Part shown: piece by piece, positions 1,174-61,482 of the stretch | Numbering within the stretch: position 1 is the first letter of the stretch | How the letters are laid out: each line of letters begins with the position of its first letter | Assembly: GCA_964016885.1 (NCBI GenBank) | Contig: OZ024741.1 | Coordinates: 326,616,001-326,680,000, forward strand | DNA: 64,000 nt | Direction of reading: 5' to 3' | Origin: Eledone cirrhosa | Taxonomy: Eukaryota | Notes under the pieces: model-generated | Database searches by the model: none | The model's input: only the letters and a program-made list of their open reading frames with translations | What the model was told of the DNA's origin: nothing | Program-made: the position numbers and the translations under genes

Positions 1174-4100
1174 CTAGCTGAATGACCTGGCGTTGCCCGA
1201 GTTACTGCTGTTTTTATTCAGATTAGGAAACAATAAATATGAAGAATTTTTTTTTCTCATATTCACTTTACATAAAATATGTCAAAGTTGTAATGATAAT
1301 AGAATTTAGAAATGAAAATCTCTTCAACCCGGTTTTACCATCTTCTTTTCTCAACCAAGAAACCAACAAAAATCACAAAAAGGGAACACAAAAATATATA
1401 TATATATTAAGAATAACAAACAGAAATCGTAATAAATTTTCTGTCGAAAACAAAAAACAGCCATAAAACAGTTTTTTTTTAACGGATGATAAAGCACTGT
1501 AAAGTTGTTGGAAGAGCCTGATAGAATGAGATGAGCAACAGCCAGAAGCACAGCAGCAGCAGTATTTCGAACTGTCCTCCATTTAGGGTCGTAATCTTCA
1601 GTTTCGATATCAGATTTATGAGAGAGGTATATCGTCAATTATTGATTTTTATCGATTTGTTTGCGTAATTGGGGATCAATTTTAAATATATAAATTCTGC
1701 ATGACCTAATTGAAGCTATTTCGAATATTGATAAGTAATTTTCCATTGAAGGAGGTGTTATTTTTTAATCGTATAGAAAAGGAACATGCACACACACTCG
1801 CTTTTATAGATAATGATATATATATATCTGTATGTGAGTGTGCGTATGTGTTTGTATATATATAAACTCTTTTTGTGTTAAATCATCTCAGTGGTAATGC
1901 ACGTTACAGGACCTCTTTGTAGACTATGTTGCGGGTCATACCGTTGGGTGTGTATGAAAAAAGGGAGTCCTTACTCCCAACTCGCGAGCAGGCAACATAA
2001 AGTTGGCCATGAGCAAAGCAGGGCTCTTTTAGATGAATGCCCGCCACGGGCAAAGTTTGACCCTGAGATTTGTTTATGGTGATCGCGAAGCAGGGCCTTA
2101 CGGGAAACTGATGTCGCCTAAAACCTATCGGGATGTCCGTGGTCGAAGGTTGGATGCTTAGCCTTGGGATCATGACGGTCTCACCTTTACCACAACCAGT
2201 TAAAATGGTTGCTTCAATGAGATGGTTCGTCATTGATTTGACTACCATTCGAGTGCCGTTGCACTGTTTTGGGTTTTGGGGGGCGCATGTTACGCATAAG
2301 CATAATCGGACTGCCGACCTTGAGCTTCAGGATGCGGGGTGGGAGACCTGGGGGTTCAAGGCTATTCAAAAACTCTACTGGGTAATCCGTCGCCTCCTGT
2401 GGATCGGTGACGCGGGTTGCCAAGGAAGTCTGTTCTCGCAAAGGTTCTGGAGGGGCCGCCAAAGGAGGAAGTTAAACCTTACCATTAGAGCAGCACAGGC
2501 CAGGTGGTTCTCCGGGCCACTTCTCTGCACCACAGAATTGGCATATGACATCCATCGGAGTATTTTACTGATGGATCGTATTTGAAAGCCTTCATAAGCC
2601 AAAATGACTCATGTGGACTCGTTGTTCCTCTGGCGGTGTCTCTTCGTGCGCTGTTTGTGTCCAACCGAGCACAGCGGGCTGTTTGATGTTCTGCGGCACG
2701 TGAGGCGGTGGTGGATACAGCGTTCTGGGTCCTTCGGATGGCTGTCTGTATCTCGGTCTGGGATGCTCTGGCAGCTGCGGTGGAGGCGGAGTCCTTGGAC
2801 CTTCGGATGGCTGTCTCCTGGTCGGTTTCTGCGGCACGGGAGGCAGCGGTTGAAGCAGCGTTCTTTGACCGTCTGGTGGCTGTTTGCTGTTTAGTTTCGG
2901 AGGCCCCTGCAGCAGCAGTAGTTGCAGCATTCCTAGCCCCACGAATAGCTCTTTGGCTGTCACTCTCTGCTGCCCTAGAGGCGGCTGTTGCAACTGCATT
3001 CCGACAATTACGAATGGCACAATTCGAAGCGGTAACCGTAGATAGAGAGGCGCTGGGTTGGGCTGTGCTAGGGGTACTTAAGTTTGAAAGTGAAGTAACA
3101 GGGGTTTGTGGCCAAAAATGCAGTCCGCCATCCGTAGACTGCTCATTCAATCGCCTCTTTTTTGAAACAACAGACGATGTTTTCCTACGGCTAAGGGTAC
3201 TCTTTCTTTTCAGTGGCATGGTTGCAATAGTACAGTAAACAGTAAAGGGGAAGCAGGTTTAGAGCAAAGGCAAAAAAGGGAAGGTGATAAGAAGTATTTT
3301 GGGGAAGGTAAAAAAAAGTAAAAAATTGTTACAATTTTAAGCAAGAAAAAAGTAAACAAAAAACGTACTGGGAATGGCAAAGTCCGAAAGCGAGGTCACA
3401 AAATGTAATGCAGTGAGAGTGAAGCACACGTCTACACAGTAGCCTAACCAAGTAGCAAGTGTAGCGTTTGAAAACCAAAGCTTTGCAGGCCACTCAAATC
3501 AACGATAAGAGTCTGTAGAATTTTTTTGATAGCAGACTTGCCAAAACAATAAAAGCTGCCACCTCCAGCCGTCCAGGAAATTTTTTTTTTTATTCAAGGC
3601 GAAAATTTGTCCACTTCTCGACCGAAAGAAAGCAAAAACTGACTCAACTAGTGCCAGGTGGTCAGAACTGGCAGGAACTGGTTTGTGTCACGTGAAGCTG
3701 TAACTATAGCAACAGTGGTTCCCTCGGTCTCAAAGACCAAAGTAAGTGGAGAGGGGAAGGTAATGTTACTGTAACACCAACAACGTCTCTCTCTATATTC
3801 CTCGCTCAATAAAGAAGGGGAGGGGGAAGGTAATGTTACTATAGCAACAGTGGTTCGCTCACTGACCAAAGTGGAGAGGGGAATGTAATATTTCTGTGAC
3901 ACCCAAAACTTCTCTCTCTATCTTCCTCTCTCTCTCTCTAAAGAAGGGGGAAGGGGAAGGTAATGTTACTATAAGACCTGTTATTCCTGTCTCTCTATAT
4001 ACGAAGTGAAGATTCGACCTCGAGCTTCACTCTCGACCGAATTTCGAATTGATTCGAGCACGTCAACAAAATTTAGACTCTTTTCTACCCATATTAGCAA

Positions 4101-9393: not shown

Positions 9394-9419
9394 ATATACA
9401 CATGTATATATACACACAC

Positions 9420-9589
<170 letters not shown>

Positions 9590-10846
9590 GTAGTAAAATG
9601 TGGAAAGGAGGCACACGTGTTAGGATATATATATAAACAGGGAGAAAGAGACGATTATGAGGAAGAAAAATATATTTTTTTCCTTTTCTTTGTCTCTCTC
9701 TCTCTCTCTTTTTCTGGGTTAGAAAATGATTAAAACGAAATGTTTTACTTTGTGTGAAGTGTTAAGGTATTAGTTGATTTATTTATTATTTAACAATGGA
9801 ATTTATATATCTGTTTATATATTTAATTATTGTCTATTACCGTTTTCTGCCTTTATATGCATTATCAAATGATAGTGAAATGTATTAGTGTGGTGTCGCA
9901 CATGTTAAACAGAAGTTACATAAAGAATAATGTTATATACAAACAAGGTTCAAGAAGTGAAAAGAAAAAAGAAAAAGACAAAAAAACGTGCATAATGTGG
10001 AACGTAAAAAGTCAATGTGGGAGAAAAAATAATGTTATTTACAAGCACAGTCATTGAAGTTAAGCTGTTCAAAATGTGTTAATATCGCAAGAGTGCGTAG
10101 TTTCACAGTTAAACACAACTTTACATGTGCATCTGAAAACCTTATCTATGATTTGACCTGCTCAGGTTGTCAAGAGCACTACATAGGACAGACAAAAAAC
10201 AGCCTCCGTCAACTAATGACCGTCCATAAATCACAAATTAAAATACAGGAATACAGAAAGATTGCATTTAGTGAACATATCGCCAATTGTGCTCTCAACC
10301 AACATCCAAACTTTAAAATGTTCCCCATATACAAATTCATAGACAACGCTACTTTCATTCAACGCACCAATAAGGAAACACATTTCATTAATGAATTTCA
10401 ACCACTACTCAATGCCCTAAAAGTCGTACCAATCTAAAAACTGCAACAAACCATCAAACATTTACAAAAGTTACCTCCCTCACACCATAACTAATCCTTT
10501 TTCTTAAATAAATTAAATATCACCCAGCAAGAATTGCTTCCCCCTGCATATTTACTTTCTAAAAAGGGAACTCATATCAAACGACAGTCTACCATTTGCC
10601 TCCTTCATGGAACCATGGTTCAACTAAACACTCTTGCGATATTAACACATTTTGAACTGCTTAACTTCAATGACTGTGCTTGTAAATAACATTATTTTTT
10701 CTCCCACATTGACTTTTTACGTTCCACATTATGCACGTTTTTTTGTCTTTTTCTTTTTTTTTCACTTCTTAAACCTTGTTTGTATATAACATTATTCTTT
10801 CTGCACCTTCTGTTTAACATGTGCGACACCACACTAATTCATTTCA

Positions 10847-10888
10847 CTATCATTTGATAATGCATGCAGATGCAGAAACCGGTAATAG
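10847..10888 (+). ncRNA. Hammerhead-like motif with U3-A8 core variant in the family-A pLTR (copies at ~15355-15395 plus and ~9833-9875 minus)
   Basis: TTGATAA-TGCAT(GCAG)ATGCA-GAAA-CCGG-TA-ATAG; palindromic stem III ACCGGT; stem I short. Confidence 0.55.
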
Positions 10889-11164
10889 ACAATAATTACA
10901 TATATAAACAGATAAATAAATGCCATTGTTAAATAATAAATAAATCAACTAATACCTTAACACTTCACACAAAGTAAAACATTTCGTTTTAATCATTTTC
11001 TAACCCAGAAAAAAGAGAGAGAGAGACAAAAAAAAGGAAAAAATATATATTTCTTCCTCATAATTGCCTCTTTCTCCCTGTTTTCATATATATATATATC
11101 CTAACTCGTGTGCCTCCTCTCCACATTTTACTATTATTATTCATCCCCACACGAGACACAGAAA

Positions 11165-14100
11165 ATGCCTACTAAAACAAAAACAGACTCCACTCTCATC
11201 AGCATCAATCAAGAGATACTCCAAGAACTACAAAAAATTAACTCTAATTTGTCAATACTCACCAACAAACTAAACTCTACAAGTGAAGGAAACAATCCCC
11301 AAATACACATCCTATGAAATCAACGACAATATCAATAACTTATGTGAAACAATAAAAACACACCTGAATAACAACACAAACTCTATTGAAACGAACTAAA
11401 ATACACATGACACTAATACACTTACACCTTACCAAATAAAAAACAAATTAATACCACAATGGTACACATCTCTTAATAACAGGAAACTCTCCTTTTGGAA
11501 GATGATACAAAACAACAACAAAGCGGAGATCTATGGAAAATGGATTAACTCTTCCCCATTAATCATCCCCCGAAAACTACAAATTAAATCCATCCTAAAC
11601 GAACCAGAGACAAAAAGACACCTCAGGGAAAGAATGGCACTTGATAACATAAAAACCGAATTTGAACTCCTTAAATTGAGAGCCCAATCAAATGAAGATA
11701 GGATCAAATCAATCGATGATGAGATTAATATAGCAATTATCAATACAACCAAAGACACCACCCTAGAAAATATTTAGAAATTATGGTTAGAGGACTATAA
11801 TAAGGAAGAATTAAAATCCCTTCAACGCTGGGAAATAAACGAAACCTGGTTCTCTAACTATGAAACACTTTTCCAAAAAGAACACGCATCCAAGAACCCC
11901 TTCATTAAAACCTTAATAACAAGAAAACTCAATCAACACCCAAACAACACAAAACAACCAACAACAACAAAAAAACAATACCACCCCACATACCAACAAA
12001 ATAAGGTATCAACTCGCCCCTACCTCCTACACCCTCCACACAACTATCACACGGACTACCAAGCAACAAATATAGTAATAGAGAAACATAAGCTACAAGA
12101 TAGACACTACAACTTCTCTCCTAACAGGAGAAACAATAAAACACCCCACACTTACAGCCCCCCCCCCCTAACATCCACACACAACAAACCCACAACCATC
12201 ATTACTTCCAACATAGAACCCAAAATACACAACTACCACACATGTCACACAGGGCCTCACAACCACACACCAGCTATAAGGAAACCCTATTCTACCCTCC
12301 CCCACTTACCACACCCTACTAAAACAACACCAGCAGGGGACAATCCAACCACACCAGACACCCTAACCCCTACAACCACCATAAGTACACACCATATCAC
12401 AGCAACAACAGGACTCAATATGAACACACAAGACAACTCTACTACAACTACCACCAAGTCTACAAACCCTACAACAACAGCAGTGCTCAACACAACCACA
12501 CGTTACAACCCAACTTCAACAACCACCACAACTTCACACCATCTTACAACAACAGCAGGAGCCAATACAACTATAAGAGACATCCAAACTTCAACAGCCA
12601 TCACAACTTCCGTAATCATTTTTTAGACACAGCACACAGACACAGGATTACAAGATAACACAAAACACACAGGAGACACAAAATGCAATACAAATTTGTC
12701 AATTTAACCTCCAAAGAATTAACAGATCAAATCAACATACTCTCCAAAGGTCTAACATTTACACAAACTCCCCAACAACAAAACTACCCCAAAATGAAGG
12801 AAGATATTGCAGAATTCTGTAGAAAACCAAGACTCAGCGAACAACTATACAACAAATACAATGAGGATGACTCAATAGCCAGAAATAGAAGCAACTACAC
12901 CCAACCAAAAGGCAAGAATAAATTCCTCGATTAATTCTGCGAACACATTACTAATTACCCATACCACCACCTACATAGACATAAACAAAAACCAAACCTA
13001 AGCAAAAGAGAATGGAATGGTTTTAACAGTCTAAAAAGCGACAAAACCCTAACAATCAAAGAGGCAGATAAAGGGAGTGCAGTAGTCCTTATGGAGACAT
13101 ATTATTACACAACTCTAGTACTCTCAACTCTAGAAAACTAAACATATTATGAAAAGGCCCAACACTACACACAACAGAAAATAATGAGAAACCTAAAATC
13201 ACTAACAACCCTTTACAAAGAGGGCCTTACAGACAAGGAATACAACTACATCACCAATTTCAAAAGCAGAACCAGCCTCTTCTACGGTATCCCCAATACA
13301 CACAAAAGCGAAGTAATAGGCAGGGCCTGCAAGCAAGCCACAGACGTTTACATCAATATAGCTCCTCCTGATGACCTTAAATTAAGACCCATAATAGCAG
13401 GCACCATCTGTGAAACCCATCGCCTAAGCCACTTCCTAGATATTCAGCGTAAACCTTTCCTAAAACATAAAAAGCTTCATAAGGGACGACCTTGACATGC
13501 TCAACCACCTTTCAACAACACTCAATAACAAACATACCCTACTAGTAACTTTTGATGTCATCAATTTATATTCCAATATCTCACACAACCTAGGTATAGA
13601 GGCAATACTATTCTGGGTGGAAAATTTCCCTAGTGAACTTCCACAGCACATCCCTAAAGAATTTGTGTTGGAGGGACTCAAATTCATCTTGGAAAACAAT
13701 TTCTTCGAATTCAATGCCAAATATTACAGACAGAAATCTGGGACTGCCATGGGCACGAAAGTGGCCCCCTCATATCATGGGATATTTGGCAACCATTCTC
13801 TACCGAAAAGTTCTAGACAAATATGGCAACCACTTCTACCAACACAGAGAAAAGAACTGTAAGAGATATCTGGACGACTGCTTCATCCTCTGACATGAAA
13901 GTATAGATAGACTGTTTGAGTTCAAAACCCTTCTGAATGAGCTCAACACTAACGTACAATTCACAATGGATTGCAGCCATGAACAACTCCCTTTCCTCGA
14001 CATCCTCATCAAGAAAACAAGCAACAAAATAGAAACAGACATATACTACAAACCCACAGACTCCAAACAATGCCTTCCATTCAACTCGTGTCACCCTAGA

Positions 14101-14941
14101 CACACCAAAATGGCAATTCCTTATAACCTAGCCAGAAGGATCTGCACAATAGTTTCAGATAAATACACATGCTACACACGACTAGAAGAATTAAAAAACA
14201 CACTTATCAGCAGAAACTACCCACCATCCCCAATAACCAATGGATTCCAACGTGCCCTAAAACTAGACATCCAAGAGTTCAGACACCCCAAACCTAGGAG
14301 TGTACCGCAACAAAAAGCTCTACCATACATCTCCACACACAACTCCCTCAACAATGAGGTATTCGACACCATCCTCCAGAACATTCCTTTACTTAAAAGA
14401 GACCCAAGAATGAACAATATCCTCCAAACACACACCATCATAAAGAGCAAAAGACAACCCAAATCCATAAAAAACATCCTCACACAAGCCAAAATCGAAC
14501 AAACCCTCACAATAAACCCTACAGTAACAAAATGCGGAAGGCCCAACTGTGGCATATGCATAAATCTAATAGAAGATTCAACATTCCATTTAAACAAGGA
14601 CAACGTTTCACAGTTAAACACAACTTTACATGTGCATCTGAAAACCTTATCTATGTTTTGACCTGCTCAGGTTGTCAAGAGCACTACATAGGGCAGACAA
14701 AAAACAGCCTCCGTCAACGAATGACCGGCCATAAATCACAAATTAAAATACAGGAATACAGAAAGATTGCATTTAGTGAACATATCGCCAATTGTGCTCT
14801 CAACCAACATCCAAACTTTAAAATTTTCCCATTTACAAATTCATAGACAACGCTATTTTCATCCAACGTACCAATAAGGAAACACATTACATTAATAAAT
14901 TTCAACCACTACTCAATACCCTAAGAATCGGACCAATCTAA
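11165..14941 (+). pseudogene. PLE ORF1 (helical domain + N/H/Y/Q-rich tail) and RT-GIY-YIG polyprotein, decayed
   Basis: KEADKGS, LRPII, FDVINLYSNI, QKSGTAMGT, RYLDD, PFLD, YYKPTD, CGRPNCGIC linker, LIYVLTC...YIGQT; many stops and frameshifts. Confidence 0.9.
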
Positions 14942-15598
14942 AACCGCAACAACCGATCAAACATTTACAAGAGTTACCTACCTCACACCCTACCTAATCC
15001 TTTTTCTTAAATAAATTAAATATCACCCAGCATGAATTGCTTCCCCCTGCATATTAACTCTCTAAAAAGGGAAATCATATCAAACCACAGTCCACCATTT
15101 GCCTCCTACACGGAACCATGGTTCAACTAAGCACTCTTGCGATATTAACACATTTTGAACTGCTTAACTTCAATGACTGTGCTTGTAAATAACATTATTT
15201 TTTCTCCCACATTGACTTTTTACGTTCCACATTATGCACGTTTTTTTTTTCCTTTTTCTTTTTTCTTTTCACTTCTTAACTCTTGTTCGTATATAACATT
15301 ATTCTTTCTGCACCTTCTGTTTAACATGTGCGACACCACACTAATACATTTCACTATAATTTGATAATGCATATAAATGAAGAAACCGGTAATAGACAAT
15401 AATTAAATATATAAACAGATAAATAAATGCCAATGTTAAATAATAAATAAATCAACAAATACCTTAACACTTCACACAAAGTAAAACATTTCGTTTTAAT
15501 CATATTCTAACCCAGAAAAGAGAGAGAGAGAGAGAGACAAAAAAAAAGGAAAGAAATATATATTTCTTCCTCATAATCGTCTCTTTCTCCCTGTTTTC

Positions 15599-15630
<32 letters not shown>

Positions 15631-17622
15631 CACAACTTCCCTTACCAACAATTGCACAGACAAAAACACAAGCCAAACCTCAACAAGAAAGAATGGGAAG
15701 AATTAAATAGATTAAAAACCGACAGAACCATTACAATTAAAGATGCTGATAAAGGGAGTACAGTAGTCCTAATGGAGACAGAATTCTATATCAACTTAGT
15801 GCTCTCCACTTTGGAAAACGAAACATACTACGAAAAGGCTGAACACTACAATCAACAGAAAATTATGAGAAACCTAAAAACTCTAATCAACCAATACAAA
15901 GAAGGACTCACTAACAAGGAATTCAGCTTCATCACAGATTTCACAAGTAAATCCAGCCTTTTCTACGGTATCCCTAAAGTACATAAAAGCGAATCAATAA
16001 GTAAGGCATGCAAGGAAGCCACAGACATAGTCATCAATGTCCCCTCACCCAATGATCTCAAATTAAGACCTATAATAGCAGGCCCCGCTTGCGAAACGCA
16101 CCGTCTTAGCAACTTCATTGATACCCTTCTCAAACCCTTCCTCAAGCACATCAAAAACTATATAAGGGACGACCTAGATATGCTCAATCACCTCCCTAAT
16201 ATGCCACTTTCTGAACAAACCCTACTAGTGACGTTCGATGTAGTCAACCTATACTCAAACATCCCCCACAACCTAGGAATAGAAGCTATCCAATTCTGGC
16301 TGGATAATTTCCACAATGAACTCCCACAACGCATCAAAAAAGAATTCGTGATAGAGGGACTCAAATTTATCCTGGAGAACAATTACTTCGTTTTCAAAAA
16401 CAAACCCTACAGGCTGAAATCTGGGACCGCTATGGGAACGAAAACAGCCCCCACTTATGCCAACCTAGTTATGGGATACCTGGAAATCACCCTCTACACT
16501 AAAGACCTAAACAAATTTGGAAACACCCTCCACTTACACATTGAAAGGAACTGGAAGCGATATCTAGATGACTGCTTCATCCTTTGGCACGAAAACATCG
16601 AAAAACTTAAAGAATTTCACACCCTTATAAATGGGATCAACACAAATATTAACTTCACGATGGAATACAGCCATCAACAACTCCCCTTCCTCGACATCCT
16701 CATTAAGATCCATAACAAAAAAATAGAAACAGACATATACTACAAGCCCACAGACTCCAAGCAATATCTCCCCTTCAACTCATGCCACCCTAGACACGTT
16801 AAAATTAATATTCCCTACAACTTAGCCAAGAGAATCTGTACTATAGTCTCCAATAAAAACATCTGCTAAATACGGCTACAAGAACTAAAGGACACACTCA
16901 TAGGCAGGGACTACCCTGCATCACTAATTGACAATGGAATCCAACGTGCCCTAAAACTCAGTACCCAGGACCTTAGACACCCTAAAGTAAATCAACCAAA
17001 ACTAAAAGCTCTTCCATACATCTCCACACACAACCCCCTCAACAATGAGGCCTTTGACACCACCCTCCAGAACATCCCTGTATTGAAAAAGGACCATAGA
17101 ATGAACCAAATTCTACGAACACACGATATCACGAAGAGCAAAAGACAATCCAAGTCAATGAAAAACATCTTAACACATGCCAAAGTACTGCCAACAACAA
17201 CAACGAAACCCACAGTAAAAAAATGCGATAAACCCAACTGAGGCATTTGCATCAACCTAATAGAGGGTTCGGAATTCTATTTCAAAGATGGACAATGTTT
17301 TATAGTAAAACACAATTTCACATGTGCATCGGAAAATCTAATATATGTATTAACTTTTTCAGGTTGTCGAGAACAATACATAGGCCAGACCAAAAACAGC
17401 CTCCGCCAACGCATGACTGTCCATAGATCCCAAATCAAAATACGGGAATACAGGAAAATACCACTGAGTGAACACATTGATACCTGTGCCGCCCAAAATC
17501 ATCCCAACTTCAGAATCTTTCCCCTCTACGAATTTAAAGATAATGCCACCCACACCCAGCGCATCAGCAAGGAATCTTACTTCATTAACAAATACGGACC
17601 CCGTCTAAACACTTCTCCCTAA
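15631..17622 (+). pseudogene. PLE reverse transcriptase + GIY-YIG endonuclease, one frame with two in-frame stops
   Basis: ADKGS, FDVVNLYSNI, GTAMGTKTAPTYANL, WKRYLDD, LIYVLT...YIGQT; TAA at 16867 and TGA at 17239; no frameshift. Confidence 0.92.
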
Positions 17623-17772
17623 GACGAACCCACAACATACACACGTCAACATACATACCTACATCAGCACAGATCTCTACCCACATATAAACACAATGAC
17701 ATACGTAAACACACATGCTCTATGGTGCAACACAAAAAAATATATGTGCATATATATATGTATATATCTATA

Positions 17773-17808
<36 letters not shown>

Positions 17809-18154
17809 GTGAATATGTGTGTGTGTATATATATATATAGTGAATATCATTTCACACCTTTTTTTGTTAAGATTTTTGATGTTCTAATAAGAGAACCGAT
17901 TTTACTGAAAAAATCGAATAATGTACACCATTTTACCAGAGGGAAAAAAATACTGCCCCCCCCCCCCCCACGCACACACACACACACACACATACACACG
18001 CGTACATCAACATACAAAGAGACTTATATATACACACACACGCACTTCTCCGTATAAGACAAAAGCTGAAAAATTCCTTTTGACATACTAAAATACCCCC
18101 CATTGCTTTCAGACACATTCTTACTGACCATCCCTGCCACCACGAATTACTCTG

Positions 18155-18194
<40 letters not shown>

Positions 18195-18266
18195 ATCTTA
18201 ATAGCCATTTGACACACATCGCTGCTAACCATTATCACAACATCGAACACCTTACTACTACTACTA

Positions 18267-18320
<54 letters not shown>

Positions 18321-18625
18321 TTGTCGTGAAAGAGTCATTTCTCAATCTTGGCGCAAAACCAATTTTTTTATTCACATGACCTATACCGACCAATCAAAAT
18401 TGTTTTGACCACAAGAATTTTTGCTGGAGCCACTTTTTTAACATAAAAACAGTGTTGGCGCAAAATCAATTTTTTACATTCACATGACCTCTACCGACCA
18501 ATCAAAATTGTTTTGACCACAAGAATTTTTGCAAATTGGAGCCACTTTTTTAACATAAAAACAGGTAGAATTCCCAAAACTAATCAGATCAGAGCAAACA
18601 ACACGGACACTCTATCTCAAAATTA

Positions 18626-18662
18626 TTTTTGAAAAGCATTTAGAAATGCGCAACCGGTAAAA
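18626..18662 (+). ncRNA. Degenerate U3-A8 hammerhead motif in the family-B 3' region
   Basis: TTT-TTGAAAA-GCATT(TAGA)AATGC-GCAA-CCGG-TA-AAA; GAAA altered to GCAA; positionally homologous to the motifs at 28636 and 50504. Confidence 0.5.
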
Positions 18663-18791
18663 ACTTAAAAACTTAAAACCACAACTGAATACTAACCCAT
18701 ACAATCACTAATACTCTTTTATTCCTAATTAAACCATTTTTCAACTGTGAACAATTTGTCAGCATGTTCTATTCCGTTTACCAATATATAT

Positions 18792-18842
<51 letters not shown>

Positions 18843-18878
18843 CGTTTCTGAATTGGCAACATGACCCTCCCAAAGTAT

Positions 18879-18938
<60 letters not shown>

Positions 18939-19255
18939 AAATATCCATCTATCTATCTACCTATCTATCTATCTCTCTATCTCTCTATCTCTCTCTATAT
19001 ATAGTGGTGGAACACTCGAAGGTAATATTCGTAGTGGCAGAGCACTCAATCCATGGGACGAGTTAGGTAGAAGTTGTTACAAAACAGTTAGTTCACCACA
19101 CCGAGAACAATTGTTTCACCTTAGCGTATCCCCAGCTCGTAATGGACAGGGTTATACGGAACCGGCCTGTTCCGTATAACCATGTCCATTACGAGCTATG
19201 AATCCGCTAAGGTGAACCAATTTTTCTCGGTATGGTGAACTAACTGTTGTGTAAG

Positions 19256-19532
<277 letters not shown>

Positions 19533-19607
19533 TAGTGTAAATATTGATGCAATTCAATTCAAGCACTCAACGTACTTTTTCCACATAGGAGTGACGTAGT
19601 AAATATC

Positions 19608-20676
19608 GAATAAGGAAAAGCGAAGTAGTTTCAGATGTTCAAGTCCTTTAATAATAATGCTGTGATACATATTTCAATGATGACACTGGCCACACTGATC
19701 TGTGTGCGAGTGTCGTGTCATTATCAGACAGCTTGTTACATAATAAGGTTATGTTTCCGAGGCAATCCAAATTGAATCAACATGGGAACGGATGAAGTTC
19801 GTGCTTTTGGGTTTTTCATCCGTTCCCTTGTGAATACCAATTCACCCCCACCGGTCTGCGCAAGCGCATGTCCGAAGGAAGTTGACCATTAGCCACCGCA
19901 GATTTCAACGAAATTCGCTGTCATTTCACCCTCTCAGCCAAAACAATGGCCCACCTATGCCCTACCAAAGTTTACTGCTACCCATCACAACTGTGGCAGT
20001 CAGCCGAAAGCCAGAGGGGATGGGAGGGTGTTAGTTTTTATAGGTCATAATACTACCTTTCACTAAGCGTTGGCAGCAAGACTGACCATCAACTCATAAG
20101 GGAAAATAAACTTAATTCTAGGTACCATGGTTTTACATTTGAAGTTAAGAGTGAGAGTTGGAAATAAAAATTAAAAATTAAAATCCTGAATCAAATATCA
20201 GAGATTATAAATTAAACAATTCAAAATTCGAAATTCAAAAATGTTTCAAGTGATAATTCGGATTGAGTAAAGATATAGATTGAAGTGAGTAAATAATATG
20301 GAGAGAGATGTTTAAGTAATAAGTTATGAGAGGGATTCTAGTGTCACAGTTACTCTATCCACATATTGAACGACAGTGCCGTACATTATAACGGAGGGCA
20401 AACTACAGGGTTCAAGGCATTAACAATCTGGTACACATTCATAATTTCCATCACATGGAACAAAATCAAAGAAAAACAGACATAAAGTACACAAAAGAAA
20501 AGAAAAGAACAGAACCAATAGTGAATAAATGCAAAAACCTTATTATGTAACAAGCTGTCTGATGATGACACGACACTCGCACACAGAACAGTGTGGCCAG
20601 TGTCGTCATTGAAATATGTATCACAGCATTATTATTAAAGGACTTGAACATCTGAAACTACTTCGCTTTTCCTTAT

Positions 20677-20678
<2 letters not shown>
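19608..20678. repeat. 143-bp inverted repeats (19608-19750 / 20536-20678), each holding a hammerhead; probable truncated PLE with inverted pLTR
   Basis: Arms are reverse complements with few mismatches; right arm ends at (TC)n(TA)n. Confidence 0.9.
20554..20627 (+). ncRNA. Intact-looking type I hammerhead ribozyme
   Basis: GCTGT-CTGATGA-TGAC..GACAC...GTGTC-GTCA-TT-GAAA-TATGTA-TC-ACAGC; 5-bp stem I; predicted cleavage after C20622; mirror copy at 19659-19732 has CTGATAA. Confidence 0.8.
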
Positions 20679-20771
<93 letters not shown>

Positions 20772-20927
20772 TAAAATAACAGATTAAAGTTTAAGCAAAG
20801 AATCGCTGCTTTCACCCTTAACGGGATCTTCTGAAACTAACAAAGTCAATCTGTAAACGCAGAACTGGATATTTCAAAAAACGTTGCAACCGGAGGAAGA
20901 CAGGAAGACGATACTTTGGTTCATGGT

Positions 20928-21196
20928 GACGTTCGCTGGCAAAGAACGGGAAAAAACGAATAATACGTCATTAATAGGAGCGGTGAAAAACAATTACGTG
21001 CAAGGACAGAACCACGTTTTTGGTATAAAAGAGGTCGTAGACTAATGTTCTCTAAGTGGTGCATAGAGACGTTCTCTGGCAAAGAACGAAAAAACGAAGA
21101 TAATAAGTCATATGTGGAGCGTGGAGAACAATAGCGTGCAAAGACAAAACCACGTAAATGGTATAGCAGAAGTCGTAGACTAAAATTCTAACTAGG
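20928..21196. repeat. Diverged ~140-bp tandem duplication
   Basis: GACGTTC.CTGGCAAAGAACG...AACCACGT...GTCGTAGACTAA occurs at 20928 and 21068. Confidence 0.75.
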
Positions 21197-21460
21197 AGAC
21201 CGAATGAATCTCCGCTACAGAGTTAAGAACAAAGTAAATAAATACAATACAGAAGTAATAGGAACAAATAAATACATACACGCAAACAGATACGTACATA
21301 TATATATATATATATATTGATTATCCATTTATTTCGAGACTTGAAACCCTACAGTAAGGGAAATTACAGCAGGTACAGTGAACTTTTTAAAATTTATTTT
21401 AAAACCTTTTCTTATTTGCTAAACCTTGAGTGTATATATTTATATATATATATGTATTTA

Positions 21461-21603
<143 letters not shown>

Positions 21604-22959
21604 ATATATACATATATAGATAGATATACATACACAAAGTTATATGTGTTTATGTATATATCCTAATTAATATATTTCCGCCTACCACAATCCGTCTTCT
21701 ATTCTCACCTGGGGTCTTATTGTTTTCTTTTCTTAAAATTTAATATATGTTTATATATACATAGTAAAAGTACTATAATGCTATGTTCCATGTTAGTAGT
21801 GGTTGTTTACACTGGGGAGAGGAAATTATTTCACGTCTATTGCATGGTTTAATGCACAGTTCTCTCCCTTTTGTATATTGTCAGTTCGCTAATATAACAG
21901 AATATCAAACCTGTTGTTTACTTTATTTCTAATGAAATTCCATTCGTGACCGATGAAAATGCACCAATCAAGTCTTGAGGTTGATTCCCTCTCTATATCT
22001 CTTCTTCACTTCCATTTTCTGACTCCCATCCTTATGTGGAACATATCTGCTGTATTCTGACCTGAAGAGTAGATGGGTAGCGCCAGGTTTAGACATGCCT
22101 TTGAAATGCTTCATCTCAACAAGTTACGGGATCGCTAATAGAATAATATCCTACAAGTTTCAATTGATTGTGATAGTAAACGAGAAAATTTACTAATTTG
22201 TGAAATAACTAACTGACTGGTCTATTAAACAGAATACAAAGATCTTTAAATATGATGTGAAGTTTAAATTCAAATATAATCACATTAAGACAATTTTGTA
22301 TATGAGACCAGTGCGGTTTCAGACACTTTGGCATCAGAGAAATTCGGAATCTCTATTACTACATATCATACTCAAACTGCTCTGTTAGTGAGGTTGATTG
22401 CATCGATTTTCTCTTACTCTAAATATGGCATTCTGCCTATCCTAGAAATCATTATATTAATTATATTGTTTAATCACCAAAACGATTGATTTGTACACCT
22501 GGAATAACGTATAATCACGAATTACATATAATCTTTAAAAATTTATTCAGTCTTGACAAATTATTCATAATCCAGATAATTTAGTTTGTTTTCGTCCTCA
22601 CTATCTTTCTCACACTTAAGGTGGGCTCATCTCCAAATCAGAATAACTATAGATTATATGTAATCTATATAGTTCCCACGTCTCTCTGACAATTTGTCTG
22701 TTTCTCATATACACACTCTCATAGTCTGTCGCTCAATCCATTCTTTATCTCTCTCATTCTCTCTCACAATCTAGATAGTTGTATTTGCTTTACACTTTGT
22801 CTAAAATGATTGCGCTGACATTCAAGCCGTTTTCACACTATGTATTTTATTCTGACGTAGTATATCTTAGGCGACCATCTCATCTTAAGTAGTTCTCGTT
22901 ACCTTTTAAGATAGTAAAGCGTGTGGATGATTCGAGGGAGTTGTTATTTACAGTAAGTC

Positions 22960-23060
22960 AAGCATTTTATTTGACCCAAAAAACTGAAAGACAAAGTTGA
23001 TCTCGGTAGGATTAAGATTCACATTGAAATCAACGCTATATCGACTCCAATTAGCCGCCT
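22960..23060 (-). mobile_element. Decayed SINE fragment
   Basis: TTTTAT.TGACCC....A.TGAAAG.CAAAGTTGA.CTCGG...GCCGCC resembles an abundant cephalopod SINE (from memory); related pieces at 46130-46260 and 47913-48000. Confidence 0.4.
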
Positions 23061-23328
23061 TCGAGACTGATACATCGTAAGAATGAATTTTCAGCATAGC
23101 TCTACTGTTGATTCGCTAATGGAAACGTCTCTCGGAAATTCTGCAAGTTGGCAGAGTCCTCTGGACGTCGAACAGAATGCTTTGCCCTATAATTGCTTTT
23201 GGTGTTATGGTACTATACATGCAACATCTCTCAGAATGAATGGGTGTCCTTGAATCGACTACGCCCAGGAGTCGGCCGGTTCAATGCACCATGCAACACT
23301 AGACAGCTGCGTCAATGTACAGCTTAAA

Positions 23329-23631
23329 GAAGAAGAAGAAGAAGAAGAAGAAGAAGAAGAAGAAGAAGAAGAAGAAGAAGAAGAAGAAGAAGAAGAAGAA
23401 GAAGAAGAAGAAGAAGAAGAAGAAGAAGAAGAAGGGCAATCTTCACAATGGGCTCAGCTGATAGCTGGATCCGTCCTACACGCGACAGAAGGTGTTCGAT
23501 ATAAACCGACAAGTCAGCAATGCTTAGATACTGGATGAATGCGTGCAGAACGGTTTCCTCGCCCTTCACGCATCTCGGACAGGCCAGAAGAAGAAGAAGA
23601 AGAAGAAGAAGAAGAAGAAGAAAAAGAAGAA
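23329..23631 (+). repeat. Two (GAA)n tracts, probably 3' tails of non-LTR retroelement fragments
   Basis: Pure GAA repeats at 23329-23434 and ~23587-23631, each preceded by short unique GC-richer sequence. Confidence 0.7.
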
Positions 23632-23906
23632 GAGAGCTATAGTAAATATCACAACGCATTATATCCGACGCTATGCTAACACTACCTATCGACCAGCATA
23701 TATTACACACTGCAATATACAGAAATGACGTTAGTTTGAGGTGTGAATATTTTATAATTGGTCCAGTTATTAAGGAATGTCAACTATGTTAAACTTCATC
23801 AGAATCTTAATATTTTAATAGACAAATCACGCACAGTCAATATAAAATGTCTGAAATATTTGACAAATATCAATGGATTACTTAATACATACAACAAATA
23901 CATACA

Positions 23907-24028
23907 ATAAATGTAATCTGAGTTTTTCGAATATCAATAATAATATTCGATTCGTCTAAAGAGGCTGTTTGCATAATTACAAACACATCGAATACTATTA
24001 TTGATATTCGAAAAACTCAGATTACATT

Positions 24029-24031
<3 letters not shown>
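23907..24031. repeat. Fold-back inverted repeat (~45 bp arms; duplicate at 32185-32309)
   Basis: ATAAATGTAATCTGAGTTTTTCGAATATCAATAATA.TATTCGAT...reverse complement, ending at (TA)n. Confidence 0.9.
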
Positions 24032-31504
<7,473 letters not shown>

Positions 31505-31608
31505 ATATATATATATTGTTATACTTTGGGAGGGTCATGTTGCCAACAAATTCAGAAACGAAATATATATATATATATATATATATCAATGATATTAATA
31601 AATGGAAC

Positions 31609-31877
31609 TATATTTATAAAACCATATTTATTCTATTATATATATTACAAGGATACCAAAATTTGGTACGCTCTCATCAGATAAAATACAAAGTTTGTTA
31701 TATAAATATTTACATACCCAGGAATCAGACCTTAACGGTTCAAGAAACGTTAAGGTCTCATTCCTGGGTATGTCAAAATTTATAAAACAAACTTTGTATT
31801 TTATCTGATGAGAGCGTACCAAAGTTTTGGTATCCTTGAAATATATATAATAGAATAAATATGGTTTTATAAATATA
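31609..31877. repeat. 269-bp palindrome with a hammerhead in each arm (copy 1)
   Basis: Centre TTAACG.TT(CAAG)AAACGTTAA at ~31743; arms reverse-complementary. Confidence 0.95.
31799..31855 (+). ncRNA. Intact-looking minimal type I hammerhead ribozyme
   Basis: TTTTAT-CTGATGA-GAG..TACCAAA(GT)TTTGGTA..CTT-GAAA-TATATA-TA-ATAGAA; mirror copy at 31631-31686 has GTAA in place of GAAA. Confidence 0.75.
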
Positions 31878-32306
31878 TTATACTCCAGAAAACCTGTCGA
31901 GTGCTTTGAAACCAAACCAACAAATTAAATATCCCCTTGCTTATATATATATATATATACTACCTATCGACCAGCATATATTACACACTGCAATATACAG
32001 AAATGACGTTAGTTTGAGGTGTGAATATTTTATAATTGGTCCAGTTATTAAGGAATGTCAACTATGTTAAACTTCATCAGAATCTTAATATTTTAATAGA
32101 CAAATCACGCACAGTCAATATAAAATGTCTGAAATATTTGACAAATATCAATGGATTACTTAATACATACAACAAATACATACAATAAATGTAATCTGAG
32201 TTTTTCGAATATCAATAATAATATTCGATTCGTCTAAAGAGGCTGTTTGCATAATTACAAACACATCGAATACTATTATTGATATTCGAAAAACTCAGAT
32301 TACATT

Positions 32307-39812
<7,506 letters not shown>

Positions 39813-39918
39813 ATATATATATATTGTTATACTTTGGGAGGGTCATGTTGCCAACAAATTCAGAAACGAAATATATATATATATATATATATATATCAAT
39901 GATATTAATAAATGGAAC

Positions 39919-40187
39919 TATATTTATAAAACCATATTTATTCTATTATATATATTACAAGGATACCAAAATTTGGTACGCTCTCATCAGATAAAATACA
40001 AAGTTTGTTATATAAATATTTACATACCCAGGAATCAGACCTTAACGGTTCAAGAAACGTTAAGGTCTCATTCCTGGGTATGTCAAAATTTATAAAACAA
40101 ACTTTGTATTTTATCTGATGAGAGCGTACCAAAGTTTTGGTATCCTTGAAATATATATAATAGAATAAATATGGTTTTATAAATATA
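39919..40187. repeat. Palindrome with double hammerhead, copy 2 (intact motif at 40109-40165, plus strand)
   Basis: Duplicate of 31609-31877. Confidence 0.95.
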
Positions 40188-40958
40188 TTATACTCCAGAA
40201 AACCTGTCGAGTGCTTTGAAACCAAACCAACAAATTAAATATCCCCTTGCTTATATATATATATATATAATAAGGTATTGACAGACCAAGTATATTTATC
40301 GATGCCAAGACAGGTTGTCTCTCAGCGTACTCCATGGGCAATGTAAGATACATTCCCAGAGTATACACATAGTTATTCGCTTCAATACAACACACACGTA
40401 AAACGGGTGCTTATAATAGTTCCCGGATTCGAGGTTCTGCCGCACTAATGAAGCAGTAAGGTGCACTGCACCATCCGTCTGCATATATTATGCAAGAATG
40501 CACAATCGGCAAATGCGGCTTCATTAGCGGGTATCGCCTAATCAATAACCAATCGATCGATAGAATCCAAACCCCAGCCCATGCCGGTCATGACTGTTTG
40601 TGACAACCGCCACGGTAAAGCGACTAGCAACTGGACCCGATACAACTCTGTCCCTCGACTAGCCACCGATTTACAAATTTTACGTGGTGGCGGGAGAATA
40701 GAAAACCAATCTTTTTGTTCCCATCAAAAGGACTCATCCAACGTGTCTCACACACAAATTATTAAGAGGTGAAAGGATGGTTATTAGAAATAGCAGTCCA
40801 CATCGATGTATAATAGAATGGTAGCATTCAGCACATGTCTCCAAGTCCCCTGGTTAGAGGAAAGCGATAGTAACTATGGTAGTGCCAAGAAGCTTTAACG
40901 GATTTTAAATGAGATTATCCATTATAGAGCGATATAGTAGCGGGCTGAAATGTGTCAT

Positions 40959-51815: not shown

Positions 51816-53954
51816 AATATATATATATATATATATATACAGTCCAAGAGTAACCAATCTTAAAGAGAGAGATGGACATAGGAGAGGAGATATGAGAGGA
51901 GAGATTGGTGAATTAGTTAGAAGCCAAAGCGTAAAGGCATGTGCTCAATGTGCAATATATATTAGAAAGCAGCTAGGTGGCTGGATTCATGCAGAAGTTA
52001 GGTGAGCAGAGCTGGAAATATTCATTAGTTAAGCAAAACAAGACCACAAATTTGACAAGGAAGACATTATTAGAAGATTGTCAACATATTTTAGTTTGAT
52101 GTAAGGAATGTAGAGAATAATAATAATAATATTAATAATAATAATGTCCGATTACAATTGTTTCGCTACTCCATATACTATTTCTGGATGAGATGACTAT
52201 ATATCATAATTGATCTGGTTCAGTTGAAAATAATTAACATATTTAAAAAACAGAGCGCCTCATCGGAACTTCAAAGGAATATGAATTAAAATAAGGAGAG
52301 AATGTTACATAATATAATGTTCCATATATTGGTATTTCCCTATGGTGTCCTGGTTGTATCAGTTGTCAGCCATAATCAAGCAGTATTCATCTGTCGAGAC
52401 TGCATTGTGTGAGATCTGCCTATGGGTAACAAGATGGCTGCCAAAGGACATATTTACCTTACTAATTAGAGGGTAGTTTCAGGGGAAGTAACTCCTCGAG
52501 AGATTAGAAATTGTGGGTAGTTTATAGTTAAGTGGTAATTTTTAAATTTTTTAATTGAGAGACAGTGTAGGGGAGGTAACTTATAATTATCTAAGTTAGT
52601 CATAGCTATTTAACTTATTAGCTACAAGTAAAAATGGGGCTAGATGACTAAGTTGGGTCAAATATTCTATTGGCGAAGGAATTAGCCCTTCGGTGTTGAC
52701 AGCTAATAGTTACCTCCGTTCTATCGTTAATCGGTAGAGGTCGTGATAGAGTTATGTAATATGCTTCTGTAATAGAGATATCACAAGATTTTCTTCGTCC
52801 ATTGAACGATTGGGCCCTAGGCACGATATCCCATTTTAGTGAGTGTTGAACGTTGCTTAATTTAAGGTTTTTAATGAGCCTAGCTAGAGATGTCGAACAT
52901 CTGTTGCTAGGGTCTCGGAAGGAAAAAGAGTGCGCGTTATAGCGTACCTTATAAGGGTACCTGAGAGGTTTATTAAAATATAGAATTGTTAAAATATAAA
53001 TTTTTTGGAATAAGATTTCTCGCGGCGTTTTCTAACATGACAGTAGTGTGACCCTTACGCTGACTTCTTTCTTTTTTTCATCTTTCTTCCTTTATTACTT
53101 TCTTTCCCTTTTTTATTCTTTGACGGAGAGGTGGTTGTGCATTATAAGCCATCGCCTCCTCACCAGATGGTCATTAGTAGACTGAGTTGCCATCACTTTT
53201 AGGGCAACTGGCCGAGGTGAAGGCGGCTAGTTGGTCAGTCGTCCTCTCTGTCTCTGATTTTTCGGACCCATGGTCTTTTACATATTCCTTTATTATATTT
53301 CGAATACCTGATGATATCACTGGATTCATATGGAACCCGGTCATTGAAATGATCATAGTATAATAAACCTTTCAGTGATTTACACCAGTCCAGCCTCCTG
53401 TTATTTTATTTATAATTAACTCCGTATTCGCACCACCAACTACACAAACGAAGACGGGTGAACTGCACTACGTTGAGTACTCTCCACAATGTTACACCAA
53501 GATTGACCATACGGAATGACCAATTCTATCAAGTGGTGAACCAACAAACCTATATATATAGAGAGAGAAATAGATAGGAAGTTTTCCTCGCAACCACAGC
53601 CACATTGAAATGCAACACGAGACGATAAATCTGGAACTGCTCGAGAGAAGATCCTTTTTATGAACAGAAAGGCTTAATTGTATCAGAGTGAACAATTTAG
53701 ATTCAAATTGGAAACGGCTTTATACAGAAGGAAGAGAAAACGTGTAATAATTTGACAAAGATGAAAACAAAAAACATCAATGTGAAATAATCTGCCGAAA
53801 AATACATGAAATTAAGTCTGAACATATACATAACCGAAATTCTACAATGTTGATATATACATACCCGTTGAACATGCAGACATGTAAACACACACATACA
53901 CACACACACACACACGCACGCACGCACACAAATACACACATAAACAAACACGCA

Positions 53955-54026
<72 letters not shown>

Positions 54027-54028
<2 letters not shown>

Positions 54029-57000
54029 TTTGAGTCAAAGTCATTGATATTATTTAACTGGAAAGTTTGTTGAAATGAATATGAAGCCGCTACCTGCAGC
54101 CTCACATATTCAGGACGTATCGGAGGGTTCTTGCTGTGAAGTGTTCCAAAAAGCGGGGCTGGACTAATCTTCTTTAACCATCCTTGGAAACTCTTTGAGA
54201 TAGTACCTAGTGCGCCTATGACAAGCGGGACGACCTTGACTTCATGGCAGTTCCAAATCCTTTTTACCCCCCACTTTAAGTCCTGGTATCGGATAATTTT
54301 CTCCCTTTCCTTTTCTTGCACTCTCGTGTCAAATGGGCAGGCCACATCTACAATCAGGCACTATCTTTTTCCTTTTCCAAAACCACCAGGTCAGGCCTAT
54401 TGTGTTCCAGTTTCTTATACGTCTGTATCCTAAAATCCCATAGCACCTTCACCTGATCGTTTTATATCACCGACTCTGGCTTATGCTCATACACTTCTCA
54501 GAATGTGGTAAATTGTTTACTTTGCATAGGTGCCAGTAGATTACCATACCCATCACATCATGTCTCCTGCCTTTATAGTGAGTCTGGGCTAGGTGTTGAC
54601 ACTCGGATACAATGTGAGCCACAGTCTCTTCTCTCTCTATCCACAAATCCTACACAGTGGGCTAGCCTCCTCCTTGTAAATATGGTGTTTCAGCCATTTC
54701 GTTTTGAGGACCTGCTCTTGCGCATCCATTAGCATTCCTTTTGTAGCCTTTTTAAGGTCTCCTCTTTTTAACCAGTTCCATGTCTGTGGATCTCTAAATT
54801 CAGTTTCTTAAAGAAGGTGCCATGAAGGGATTTTTCATGAAAGTTGCTCTTCCTCCTTGTTGTTATTTCCTATCTGGACATCTACTGTCTTCTCCTTCAG
54901 TAAAATTTTGAGTGCTGGCTCCCTACTGTCAGTCACGTATTTGTGCAGATTGTTTTTCTCCATCTGAACACAGTCCTCTATGCTGATAAGACCTCTCCCA
55001 CGTTTAGATCTCATGTGGAACATGTTGTAGATAGTCAATAGCTTCCTAGTCTTCCTATCCATTTCTTTTTGTTCAGCAACATTCCATTTCAGAATTCCCG
55101 CATTGTATCTAACAATAAAAACAGCTCAGGAATTCATGGCACTTATAACATTCCTACCATTTAGATGTGATTTTAATACGCTCCTTACTCTCCTAATGTA
55201 CTCAGATCTTATCAATTCCTTAATATTGTGTACTTGATGTCAAAACACCTTAATATTTGTATCCTTCTTCAGTGTCAATTTCCTTTATCATCTCACCTGT
55301 TGGTACCTGGATTCCGTTGCTTCTGCTCAATTTACCCCTCTTCATCACTCGTACTCCACACTTATTAACACCAAATTCCATACATAAATCATTGCTGAAA
55401 ATACGGACAGTGTCAACTAGTACATCCAAATCCTTCTCACTCTTCCCAAAGAGTTTAAGATCGTCCATGAAGAGGAGGTGGTTGTTGGTAAGCTCTCCTT
55501 TTCCCAACTTGTATCCTGTTCTCACTTTTCGCAATATAATGGTCACGGGTATCAGGGCAAGGACAAACAACAGAGGGGACAAACTATCTCCCTGGAAGAT
55601 ACCTCTCTTGATCTTCACGTCTCCCAAGGATTATCCACCCGATGTTAACTCTGTTTCCCAGGACTTCATACTTTTGCTCAACAACTGTCTGATGTTACCT
55701 ACCACCTTGAAGATCTCTAGGCTTTTGGTGATCCAAGAATGAGGTACCATGTCGAATGCCTTTTTGTAATCTATCCATCCCATGGCTAGACCAGTGTGTC
55801 TGCTCTTGCAATTCCTCATTACCATCTTATCAATAAGTAACTGGTCCTTTGTACCACGGGACTTCTTTCGGCATCCTTTCTGTTCGTCCGGTAACAAGTT
55901 GTTTGTGTGGAGGTGATGGTAGATTTCCTCAGACATAATGCTTGTCAACAGTTTCCACATTACGGACAGACATGTGATAGGTCTATAGTTGGTAACATCA
56001 TTACCCTTGATTCGGTCTTTCATTATCAGAACTGTGGTACCTTTTGTCAACCACTCTGGTACCTCACCTGACATCAAGCAGTCATTGAACATGGTTGTCA
56101 GTTTCGGGTGGAGGGATGTTATATTTTTAATCCAATAACCCTGCACACTATCTGGGCCTGGTAATTTCCAGCTGGTTAGTTTTTTGGCCTGCTCTTTAAG
56201 AATATCAACTATCATACTCAAATCAGTTTGTTGGTGTGCTTGTTCACTAATCTCCTTTCGTACTGTCTCAATCCACACTGCCTGGTCATTATGTTCAACA
56301 TCCTGCTCCCATATTCCTCTCCAGAATGTCTTAGTCTGTTCCGCCTCAGGGAACAAGACGTTGCCTCATCCTTTTCCTTCAAGCTGTCCACAAAACATCT
56401 TCTGGTTGTTGTCAAACATGCGGTTCTGTCTATACTGACTGACTCTTCTCGAATACCGCCTAATCTTTGCACTTCTTGCTACAATGGGGATCACTTTGAC
56501 TTCATGGCAGTTCCAAATCCTTTTTAACTCCAAGTTTAAGTCCTGGTATCTGTTAATTTTCTCCCCCTCCTTCTCTTGCACTCTCGTGTCGAATGGGCAG
56601 GCCACATCCACAATCAGGCACGATCTTTTTTCTTTGTCCACAACCACCAGGTCAGGTCTATTGTGTTCCAGTTTCTTGTCCGTCTGTATCCTAAAATCCC
56701 ACAGCACCTTCACCTGATCGTTTTCTATCACCGCCTCTGGCTTATGCTCATACCACTTCTCAGAATGTGGTAAATTGTTCACTTTGCATAGGTGCCAGTG
56801 GATCACCCTGCCCATCACATCATGTCTCCAGCCCTTATAGTGAGTCTGGGCTAGGTGTTTACACTAGGATACAATGTGAGCCACAGTCTCCTCTCTCTCA
56901 CCACAGATCCTGCACAGTGGGCTAGCCTCCTCCTTGTAAATATGGTGTTTCAACCACTTCGTTTTGAGGGCCTGCTCCTGTGCAGCCATTAACATTCCTT

Positions 57001-59040: not shown

Positions 59041-59041
59041 C

Positions 59042-61447: not shown

Positions 61448-61482
61448 GTGGTCTTTCCCATCTTTTCCACTCTATTTTAAAC

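Follow-up and report, generated by a model that had tools for sequence, protein, structure and literature searches.

A slippery heptamer at the ORF1 end of two-ORF, endonuclease-bearing Penelope-like elements as a likely −1 frameshift site

In the 64,000-nt stretch of Eledone cirrhosa DNA analyzed here (the window), two diverged Penelope-like element (PLE) families, A and C, carry the same 15-mer, AATCATTTTTTAGAC, at 12614–12628, 25320–25334, and 33630–33644, and the question raised by this locus is what that word does between an upstream ORF and the reverse transcriptase (RT). A sequence-only reading had taken it for a functional recoding or splicing signal with the RT in the −1 frame, and the heptamer on which that reading turned, TTTTTTA, does lie within the identical 15-nt island. 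The 15-mer and heptamer end a previously unclassified ORF1 in endonuclease-bearing (EN+), Neptune-like Penelope elements. This ORF1 end of a two-ORF EN+ PLE is probably a programmed −1 frameshift site that would make a minority ORF1–RT–endonuclease fusion beside an abundant ORF1 protein.

The window DNA is AT-rich, repeat-dense, and animal-type, and the features of the two families are listed in Table 1. The pseudo-LTRs (pLTRs) of family A (10100–11099 against 14605–15612) are 93.9% identical, with 50 mismatches and 6 gap openings over 1010 nt. Directly past the 3′ pLTR starts a 5′-truncated third PLE family (15634–17622), which matches A at 75% and is nearly intact, with 2 stops and no frame change against the relative P0002. 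Both copies of the family C junction sit inside an 8.3-kb tandem duplication of 99.5% identity (23681–40272) that is recent or else an assembly duplication, and C-like fragments are also found at 43.6–46 kb. Within this duplication, a remnant at 29064–31168 is presumably transposase-like; elsewhere, we take 1904–3258 to be a helicase-like (Helitron-type) fragment, 53842–59041 two LINE RT remnants in tandem, and 59879–63994 an L1/Tx1-like element. A TAA occupies the matching early RT codon in A (12932–12934), C (25631–25633), and the C duplicate (LD-stop-FC); because a residue (T, K, N, E, and others) is present at this codon in 92 of 92 aligned intact relatives, we judge the common stop likely to be coincident decay.

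Table 1. Coordinates of the family A and family C features in the window
Feature	Position	Strand	Remark
Family A, Penelope-like element	~10100–15612	+	Full-length but decayed
Family A 5′ pseudo-LTR	10100–11140	+	Part to 11140 covered by inverted match
Partial inverted copy of family A pseudo-LTR	9584–10102		
Family A 3′ pseudo-LTR	14605–15612	+	
Family A ORF1	11165–12658	+	Decayed; ATG 11165; conserved core ~11430–11900, then N/H/Y/Q/R-rich tail
Family A RT, Cys linker, GIY-YIG endonuclease	12698–14941	+	Decayed
Family A −1 frame connector, FFRHSTQ...NAIQI	12616–12697	+	
Family A slippery heptamer U6A, T TTT TTA	12619–12625	+	In phase with NHFLD frame
Family A ORF1 stop, TAA	12656–12658	+	30 nt past heptamer; 12 codons from Phe
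Family C junction, T TTT TTA	25325–25394	+	
Family C junction, duplicate copy	33635–33704	+	Identical; not independent

At the junction of family A, the upstream frame is open over 12323–12658 and ends in NHFLDTAHRHRITR before its stop, and the −1 frame can be read through the connector, opening one codon ahead of the heptamer (TAA at 12613–12615); on both points the sequence-only reading was accurate. The T6 run is the only one in the 3.8-kb element. As sequenced, the frame that encodes NHFLD is also the RT frame (the 0 frame), with one TAA between the two and an in-frame ATG at 12683 that gives MQYKFVNL in the RT frame without any indel. The ORF1 core of family A lies in a different frame from NHFLD, one that stops at the TAG inside TTTTTTAG. 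For NHFLD to be the end of ORF1, an upstream indel is required, likely in the C11 run (12158–12168), and the stop at 12320 is crossed; a codon model prefers the NHFLD frame in 8 of 10 scoring windows from 12168 to 12617, just past the C11 run. Frame changes in this ORF1 are found near 11300 and probably at the C11 run, along with in-frame stops.

For the −1 frame to reach the RT in family A, a net one-base shift is required somewhere in 12626–12697. The suggestion that an extra T near 12696 is the decay indel was not confirmed, being one of several equally good explanations. The residue two ahead of Asn in the N-terminal RT motif is I or V in 61 of 61 usable relatives (of 120) and F in family A; a single substitution would equally turn the most frequent form, K-I-V-N, into K-F-V-N, so that any position in 12626–12697 could hold the indel. 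The decay level of this copy allows an indel, as its RT–endonuclease carries 3 frame changes (in 2.1 kb of RT) and 3 stops against intact relatives, and its pLTRs differ by 6 gap openings per kb. No second family A copy covering the junction region is present in the window. That the RT of this copy, as sequenced, reads in the 0 frame tells against a −1 frameshift.

The 15-mer is modest evidence alone, because a shared word of at least 15 arose by chance between two simulated low-complexity tails in 1.2% and 1.8% of 2000 Markov simulations. As the C copies sit in one tandem duplication, the window gives two independent observations of it and not three. The statement that A is not alignable to C in this region does not hold in full: the two are weakly alignable along an ungapped diagonal that continues past the motif (TR-stop-HK against TRWHK), although over the 60 nt beyond the heptamer the score does not exceed that of shuffles (644 of 2000). 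The ORF1 of family A is 40–48% identical to that of family C (tblastn).

Protein relatives of ORF1 extend these observations. A search without a length limit gave 486 matches at E ≤ 0.001 among 1.84 billion cluster representatives, and the best 150 of the 486 are at most 546 aa long. Of these 150, 51 without a tail were set aside (4 have FL within 11 residues of their end) and 99 with a tail of at least 60 aa were used. A Phe-Leu pair (FL) occurs in the last 45 aa of 71 of the 99 tails, against a shuffle mean of 9.4 and maximum of 17 (500 shuffles) and 18 of 180 other tail windows; it is missing in 28. The residue ahead of this FL can be H, S, R, P, N, Y, D, L, G, or F, and the amino acids that lack a T-ending codon (K, E, Q, M, and W) are found there in 0 of 71 tails, compared with a background of 21% (P = 4e-8) and with 39 of 85 other FL pairs. 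The residue before FL thus always permits a T-ending codon, which implies T TTT TTR and is what one would expect of a constraint on the base T, not on the peptide. In a separate ORF1 profile search, 11 of the 22 matches end in xFL(F/Y)H, 14–21 residues ahead of the stop. That these ORF1 proteins, available as protein sequences, belong with RT genes is something we infer.

Among the 28 non-FL tails, 7 end in F followed by the stop (P0152, P0159, P0176, P0186, P0192, P0232, and P0269), and some of these (ENHF-stop, SVIF-stop) look like termination on a TAG in the T-run after an indel. A single-sequence ORF1 search for longer proteins, a weak search, found none among 433 candidates. Pfam has no family for the ORF1 pieces of the window and none common to more than 1 of 16 homologs, a PDB sequence search gave two weak matches only (E = 0.04 and 0.54), and the ESM Atlas returned no usable match for two ORF1 queries. 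A structural or RNA-binding role for ORF1 would be a guess by analogy.

DNA of relatives was obtained from one scan of bacterial and archaeal genome contigs, which gave 48 loci (L001–L048) that resemble host DNA inside assembled genomes. These loci belong to GTDB representative genomes with animal-type PLE contigs, and the presence of 33 of them in one Stappiaceae MAG points to host contamination. The N-terminal RT motif is found in 22 of the 48; 3 ran off the locus, and the other 19 form six families (grouped by eye), the largest comprising 14 loci. An in-phase U-rich heptamer lies 1–7 codons past the RT frame opening in four of these six evaluable independent families, with a chance expectation of 0.02–0.05 each. 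In L002, the only locus with both DNA and a detectably homologous ORF1, an ORF1 homologous to that of family A (E = 3.6e-16) ends in AAT TTT TTG and 19 more codons before the stop, and the RT is in the −1 frame, which opens one codon ahead of the heptamer and has no ATG before the motif. The other three heptamers lie 3–7 codons past the RT frame opening: L016 encodes YFLD on T TTT TTA, L008 carries G GGT TTT (GGGTTTT) but lacks both a hairpin and a stop close by, and L012 carries G GAT TTT (GGATTTT), counted only after the heptamer definition was relaxed.

The heptamer phase is the same in A, C, L002, and L016, and the RT is in an overlapping −1 frame in C, L002, L008, L012, and L016 but not in the family A copy as sequenced. 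The heptamer is missing in two of the six evaluable families, namely the 14-locus family, of which L023 keeps a 13-nt −1 overlap without it, and L028, which has neither ORF1 nor heptamer. A GIY-YIG pattern is found in L002 and L012 and not in L008, L016, L018, or L028. The contig end of L012 (1–4168) overlaps its own start, and inside is an intact two-ORF EN+ PLE with a 393-aa ORF1, the G GAT TTT heptamer followed by a GC-rich stretch, and a 793-aa RT–endonuclease frame. A search for RT relatives took in proteins of 721–2055 aa, and the best 120 of 314 are 723–803 aa long, with one 899-aa gene model; none is as long as an ORF1 fusion. The FF expected from a −1 reading of the T6 run is present in 3 of 11 RT relatives with long N-terminal extensions.

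The distance from the Phe of FL to the stop is also constrained. In the 71 FL tails it is never below 12 codons, is exactly 12 in 28, and is 13 in 6, and family A is at this modal and minimal distance; the ten residues between FL and the stop have a mean identity of only 9%. Among the non-FL tails, 5 of 28 have F at 11, which would put xxF-type heptamers in the same phase. Family C and the three nearest tree relatives of A have W at codon 13, as if the stop there was lost. On a quick tree, tails of the 12-codon class group together (12 changes compared with 22.8 when shuffled), although the class is kept over long branches; because of this clustering, binomial P values overstate the independence of the cases. 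Two candidate causes of the spacing were rejected: an AUGA stop-start as the general cause of the 12-codon spike, as an A-ending codon is possible in 22 of 28 last residues with a background of 69%, and a hydrophobic constraint in the −1 frame, as T-starting residues are found at codon 13 in 8 of 43 tails with a background of 19%. Of two after-the-fact composition tests of long against short spacing, one was null (P = 0.35) and the other showed Gly to be more frequent behind FL when the spacing is long (P = 0.002, without correction for the tree).

RNA structure at the junctions is weak. The claim that family A lacks a downstream hairpin was upheld (MFE −0.7 kcal/mol; 165 of 200 shuffles as good), and a stem-loop or pseudoknot 5–9 nt downstream of the heptamer is absent in A, with a weak, nonsignificant hairpin in C and L002. 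In family C, whose RT is in a −1 frame open from 25295 with no ATG ahead of the RT motif, a GGCU/AGCC hairpin starts 6 nt past the heptamer, TGG stands at the codon where A carries its stop, and the ORF1 stop is 22 codons from Phe. In L002 the ORF1 stop is 21 codons from Phe, and a short GGC/GCC hairpin, 4–6 nt past the heptamer, is common to C and L002. The stability of these hairpins is not significant alone (12 of 200 and 27 of 200 shuffles as stable), their pseudoknot scores are equalled by 45 of 60 and 24 of 60 shuffles, and none of 5 junctions searched for a pseudoknot gave a significant result. Their mutual similarity was reached by 20 of 2000 shuffles and nearly equalled by one of six upstream control windows (26 compared with 27). 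The hairpin common to C and L002 is suggestive but falls short of significance. Rfam gave nothing at gathering score and only microsatellite-type chance matches at E ≤ 1. It has no match to the hammerhead ribozyme either, and a core-motif scan of 9400–29000 gave 2 matches, neither of them in the pLTRs (these copies are decayed).

The frameshift model builds on what was observed: ORF1 and RT are in separate frames in relatives, a U-rich heptamer is kept in phase, both C and L002 have the RT in the −1 frame, and the stop distance follows a pattern. The heptamer is of the XXXYYYZ form and in phase with the upstream ORF, as at canonical −1 frameshift sites. We propose that most ribosomes would end ORF1 at its own stop and that a minority would slip −1 on the heptamer to give ORF1–RT–endonuclease. 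As in gag-pol, tRNA-Phe and tRNA-Leu on U UUU UUA would slip and re-pair with UUU UUU, and the decaying family A copy would have gained one base somewhere between 12626 and 12697. The claim of a functional recoding signal with the RT in the −1 frame draws its support from the relatives (no fused protein, the FL tails, L002, and the heptamer families). Models, annotations, and expression constructs of EN+ Penelope elements usually treat them as one RT–endonuclease ORF. If the frameshift is real, the true enzyme has a long N-terminal part that annotations have missed, and the element sets its own protein ratio as retroviruses do.

More speculatively, the stimulus in the hairpin-less family A could come from termination at the stop 30 nt downstream, where one ribosome would hold the next on the heptamer; a ribosome spans roughly 30 bases. 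Where the stop is farther away (C and L002), a short hairpin might be used instead. It is possible, although we hold it doubtful, that in a widespread two-ORF PLE clade colliding ribosomes drive the −1 frameshift that makes the RT, without any RNA structure and with the stop placed one ribosome length past U6A. If so, a mechanism that we encountered only in artificial bacterial reporters would have a natural counterpart in eukaryotes, and RT output would be tied to ribosome load. The hard floor and spike in stop distance bear on the terminating ribosome as a natural frameshift stimulator in animals.

Other readings of the junction have to be set against the frameshift. If the family A copy has suffered no indel, ORF1 ends at TAA 12656 and the RT starts at ATG 12683 by re-initiation or leaky scanning, leaving the heptamer a relic. 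This ATG is in the RT frame, five codons ahead of VNLT, with A at −3, the hairpin is lacking, and many RT ORF calls start with M a few residues before the motif, though that is the gene callers' default. We consider such a start unlikely, in that an unused heptamer is not expected to stay identical and in phase when the RT DNA of A and C is now only 63% identical, the −1 frame is open from one codon ahead of the heptamer up to the RT motif, F is found two residues before Asn in 0 of 61 relatives, and family C has no such ATG. A 3′ splice acceptor at TTTTTTAG, linking an upstream exon to the RT, is very unlikely. Introns are known in PLEs (PMC8557442), a U-tract followed by AG is present in A, C, and L016, and the codon after FL can start with G in 52 of 71 tails; however, L002 reads TTTTTTGTT, without AG, an AG behind the Leu codon is impossible in the other 19 of 71 tails and in all 11 FL tails among the 22 profile matches, which have F or Y after L. 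L008 (G GGT TTT C) and L012 (G GAT TTT C) speak against an acceptor as well, and splicing would fix neither codon phase nor stop distance. Of the two functions originally offered for the motif, recoding is supported and splicing is disfavored.

Polymerase slippage on the T6 run, by which some transcripts would gain one U and have the frame restored without the ribosome, would yield the same protein product from a homopolymer run that is indeed present. The runs are only 4–6 T long (4 in L008 and L012), whereas efficient transcript slippage usually requires longer ones, and strict codon phase and the XXXYYYZ form are ribosomal signatures; we regard slippage as highly improbable. There is just as little to be said for a chance match or a conserved peptide (H-F-L-D) in a single ORF broken by a nonsense mutation at 12656, even though NHFLD and RT share one frame in the A copy as sequenced, such a 15-mer arises by chance 1–2% of the time, and one ORF1 subclade keeps the longer peptide NFLFHGQG. 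No fused protein exists among the best 150 of 486 ORF1 relatives or the best 120 of 314 RT relatives, the stop of A is at the modal position of its relatives, and any of 10 amino acids can precede FL, yet a T-ending codon is always possible. The single broken ORF has already been largely refuted.

These elements compare with known systems as follows. Pfam GIY-YIG is above cut-off in the A, B, and C pieces of the window and RVT_1 is below it; the GIY-YIG domain, IYVLTCSGCQEHYIG at 14649, has two Cys between GIY and YIG, and the CX2-5CxxC linker is present as CGRPNCGIC at 14533 (A) and CGRSNCGTC at 27213. The endonuclease separates the elements from the EN− Athena/Coprina group. ORF1 is separate in A, C, L002, and L012, unlike the single ORF of canonical Neptune EN+ PLEs, and the elements were therefore filed as a Neptune-like two-ORF variant. 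The PLE clade drawn with a frameshift and pseudoknot at ORF1 in a published figure is reportedly that of the EN-deficient Athena elements. According to PMC8557442, Neptune-type EN+ PLEs have the same two-Cys C-terminal GIY-YIG, the CX2-5CxxC linker, and direct and inverted pseudo-LTRs; canonical EN+ PLEs are single-ORF there, whereas the elements here have EN and a separate ORF1 of ~350–500 aa without a Pfam family. The two-ORF PLEs described in PMC6431247 are without EN, in contrast to the EN-carrying two-ORF elements here. The Fig. 1 legend of PMC8557442 gives ORF1 as separable by a frameshift with a pseudoknot, from which it follows that PLE frameshifting is already known in at least one clade; that legend has a pseudoknot, absent in family A, and does not mention a fixed stop distance.

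A killifish Neptune element with two ORFs has been described in PMC12602865, where the portion available does not mention frameshifting. By eye, the esterase-like ORF on the minus strand of its consensus CL27Contig27_13 ends on G TTA AAT TAG and is followed by a GC-rich hairpin, the RT being in the −1 frame, a junction suggesting that −1 frameshifting may extend to fish Neptune elements; esterases in Neptune-like PLEs are reported in PMC5408684. The literature surveyed, as far as the available texts go, describes neither a slippery heptamer in EN+ PLEs nor a stop spacing, and PMC5850863, Repbase, and Dfam, outside the survey, may record part of this. Penelope and Athena are unmentioned in PMC5009743 (term search of its first 300,000 characters), and the available parts of PMC3846280, PMC6515669, PMC11167929, PMC13282606, and bioRxiv 10.64898/2026.07.22.740005 hold nothing further on a PLE heptamer or stop spacing. 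What appears to be new here are the stop-spacing rule and the heptamer in EN+ PLEs, PLE frameshifting as such being already known.

The U UUU UUA heptamer is of the HIV-1 type (PMC4373837). As in the gag-pol −1 frameshift, the heptamer and its phase are the same, a structural-type ORF lies upstream, and the polymerase is in the −1 frame; unlike gag-pol, the elements here encode a non-LTR, telomerase-related RT, have no protease or integrase, and in A have no stem-loop. In SARS-CoV-2 (PMC8168617) there is a similar effect of stop distance, but it acts through pseudoknot refolding, with the stop 5 codons away. The closest likeness to the spacing in family A is in E. coli reporters, in which, according to PMC6815119, a ribosome stalled at a 0-frame stop a set distance past the slippery site raises −1 shifting of the trailing ribosome, at spacings of 8–10 codons with a peak at 9. 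Those reporters are artificial, work in bacteria, and have their optimum at 9 codons, whereas the PLE junction is natural and eukaryotic, with a putative role for a stop whose distance to the Leu codon is 11 codons, or 10 should slipping take place in translocation; this mismatch in spacing counts against the collision reading.
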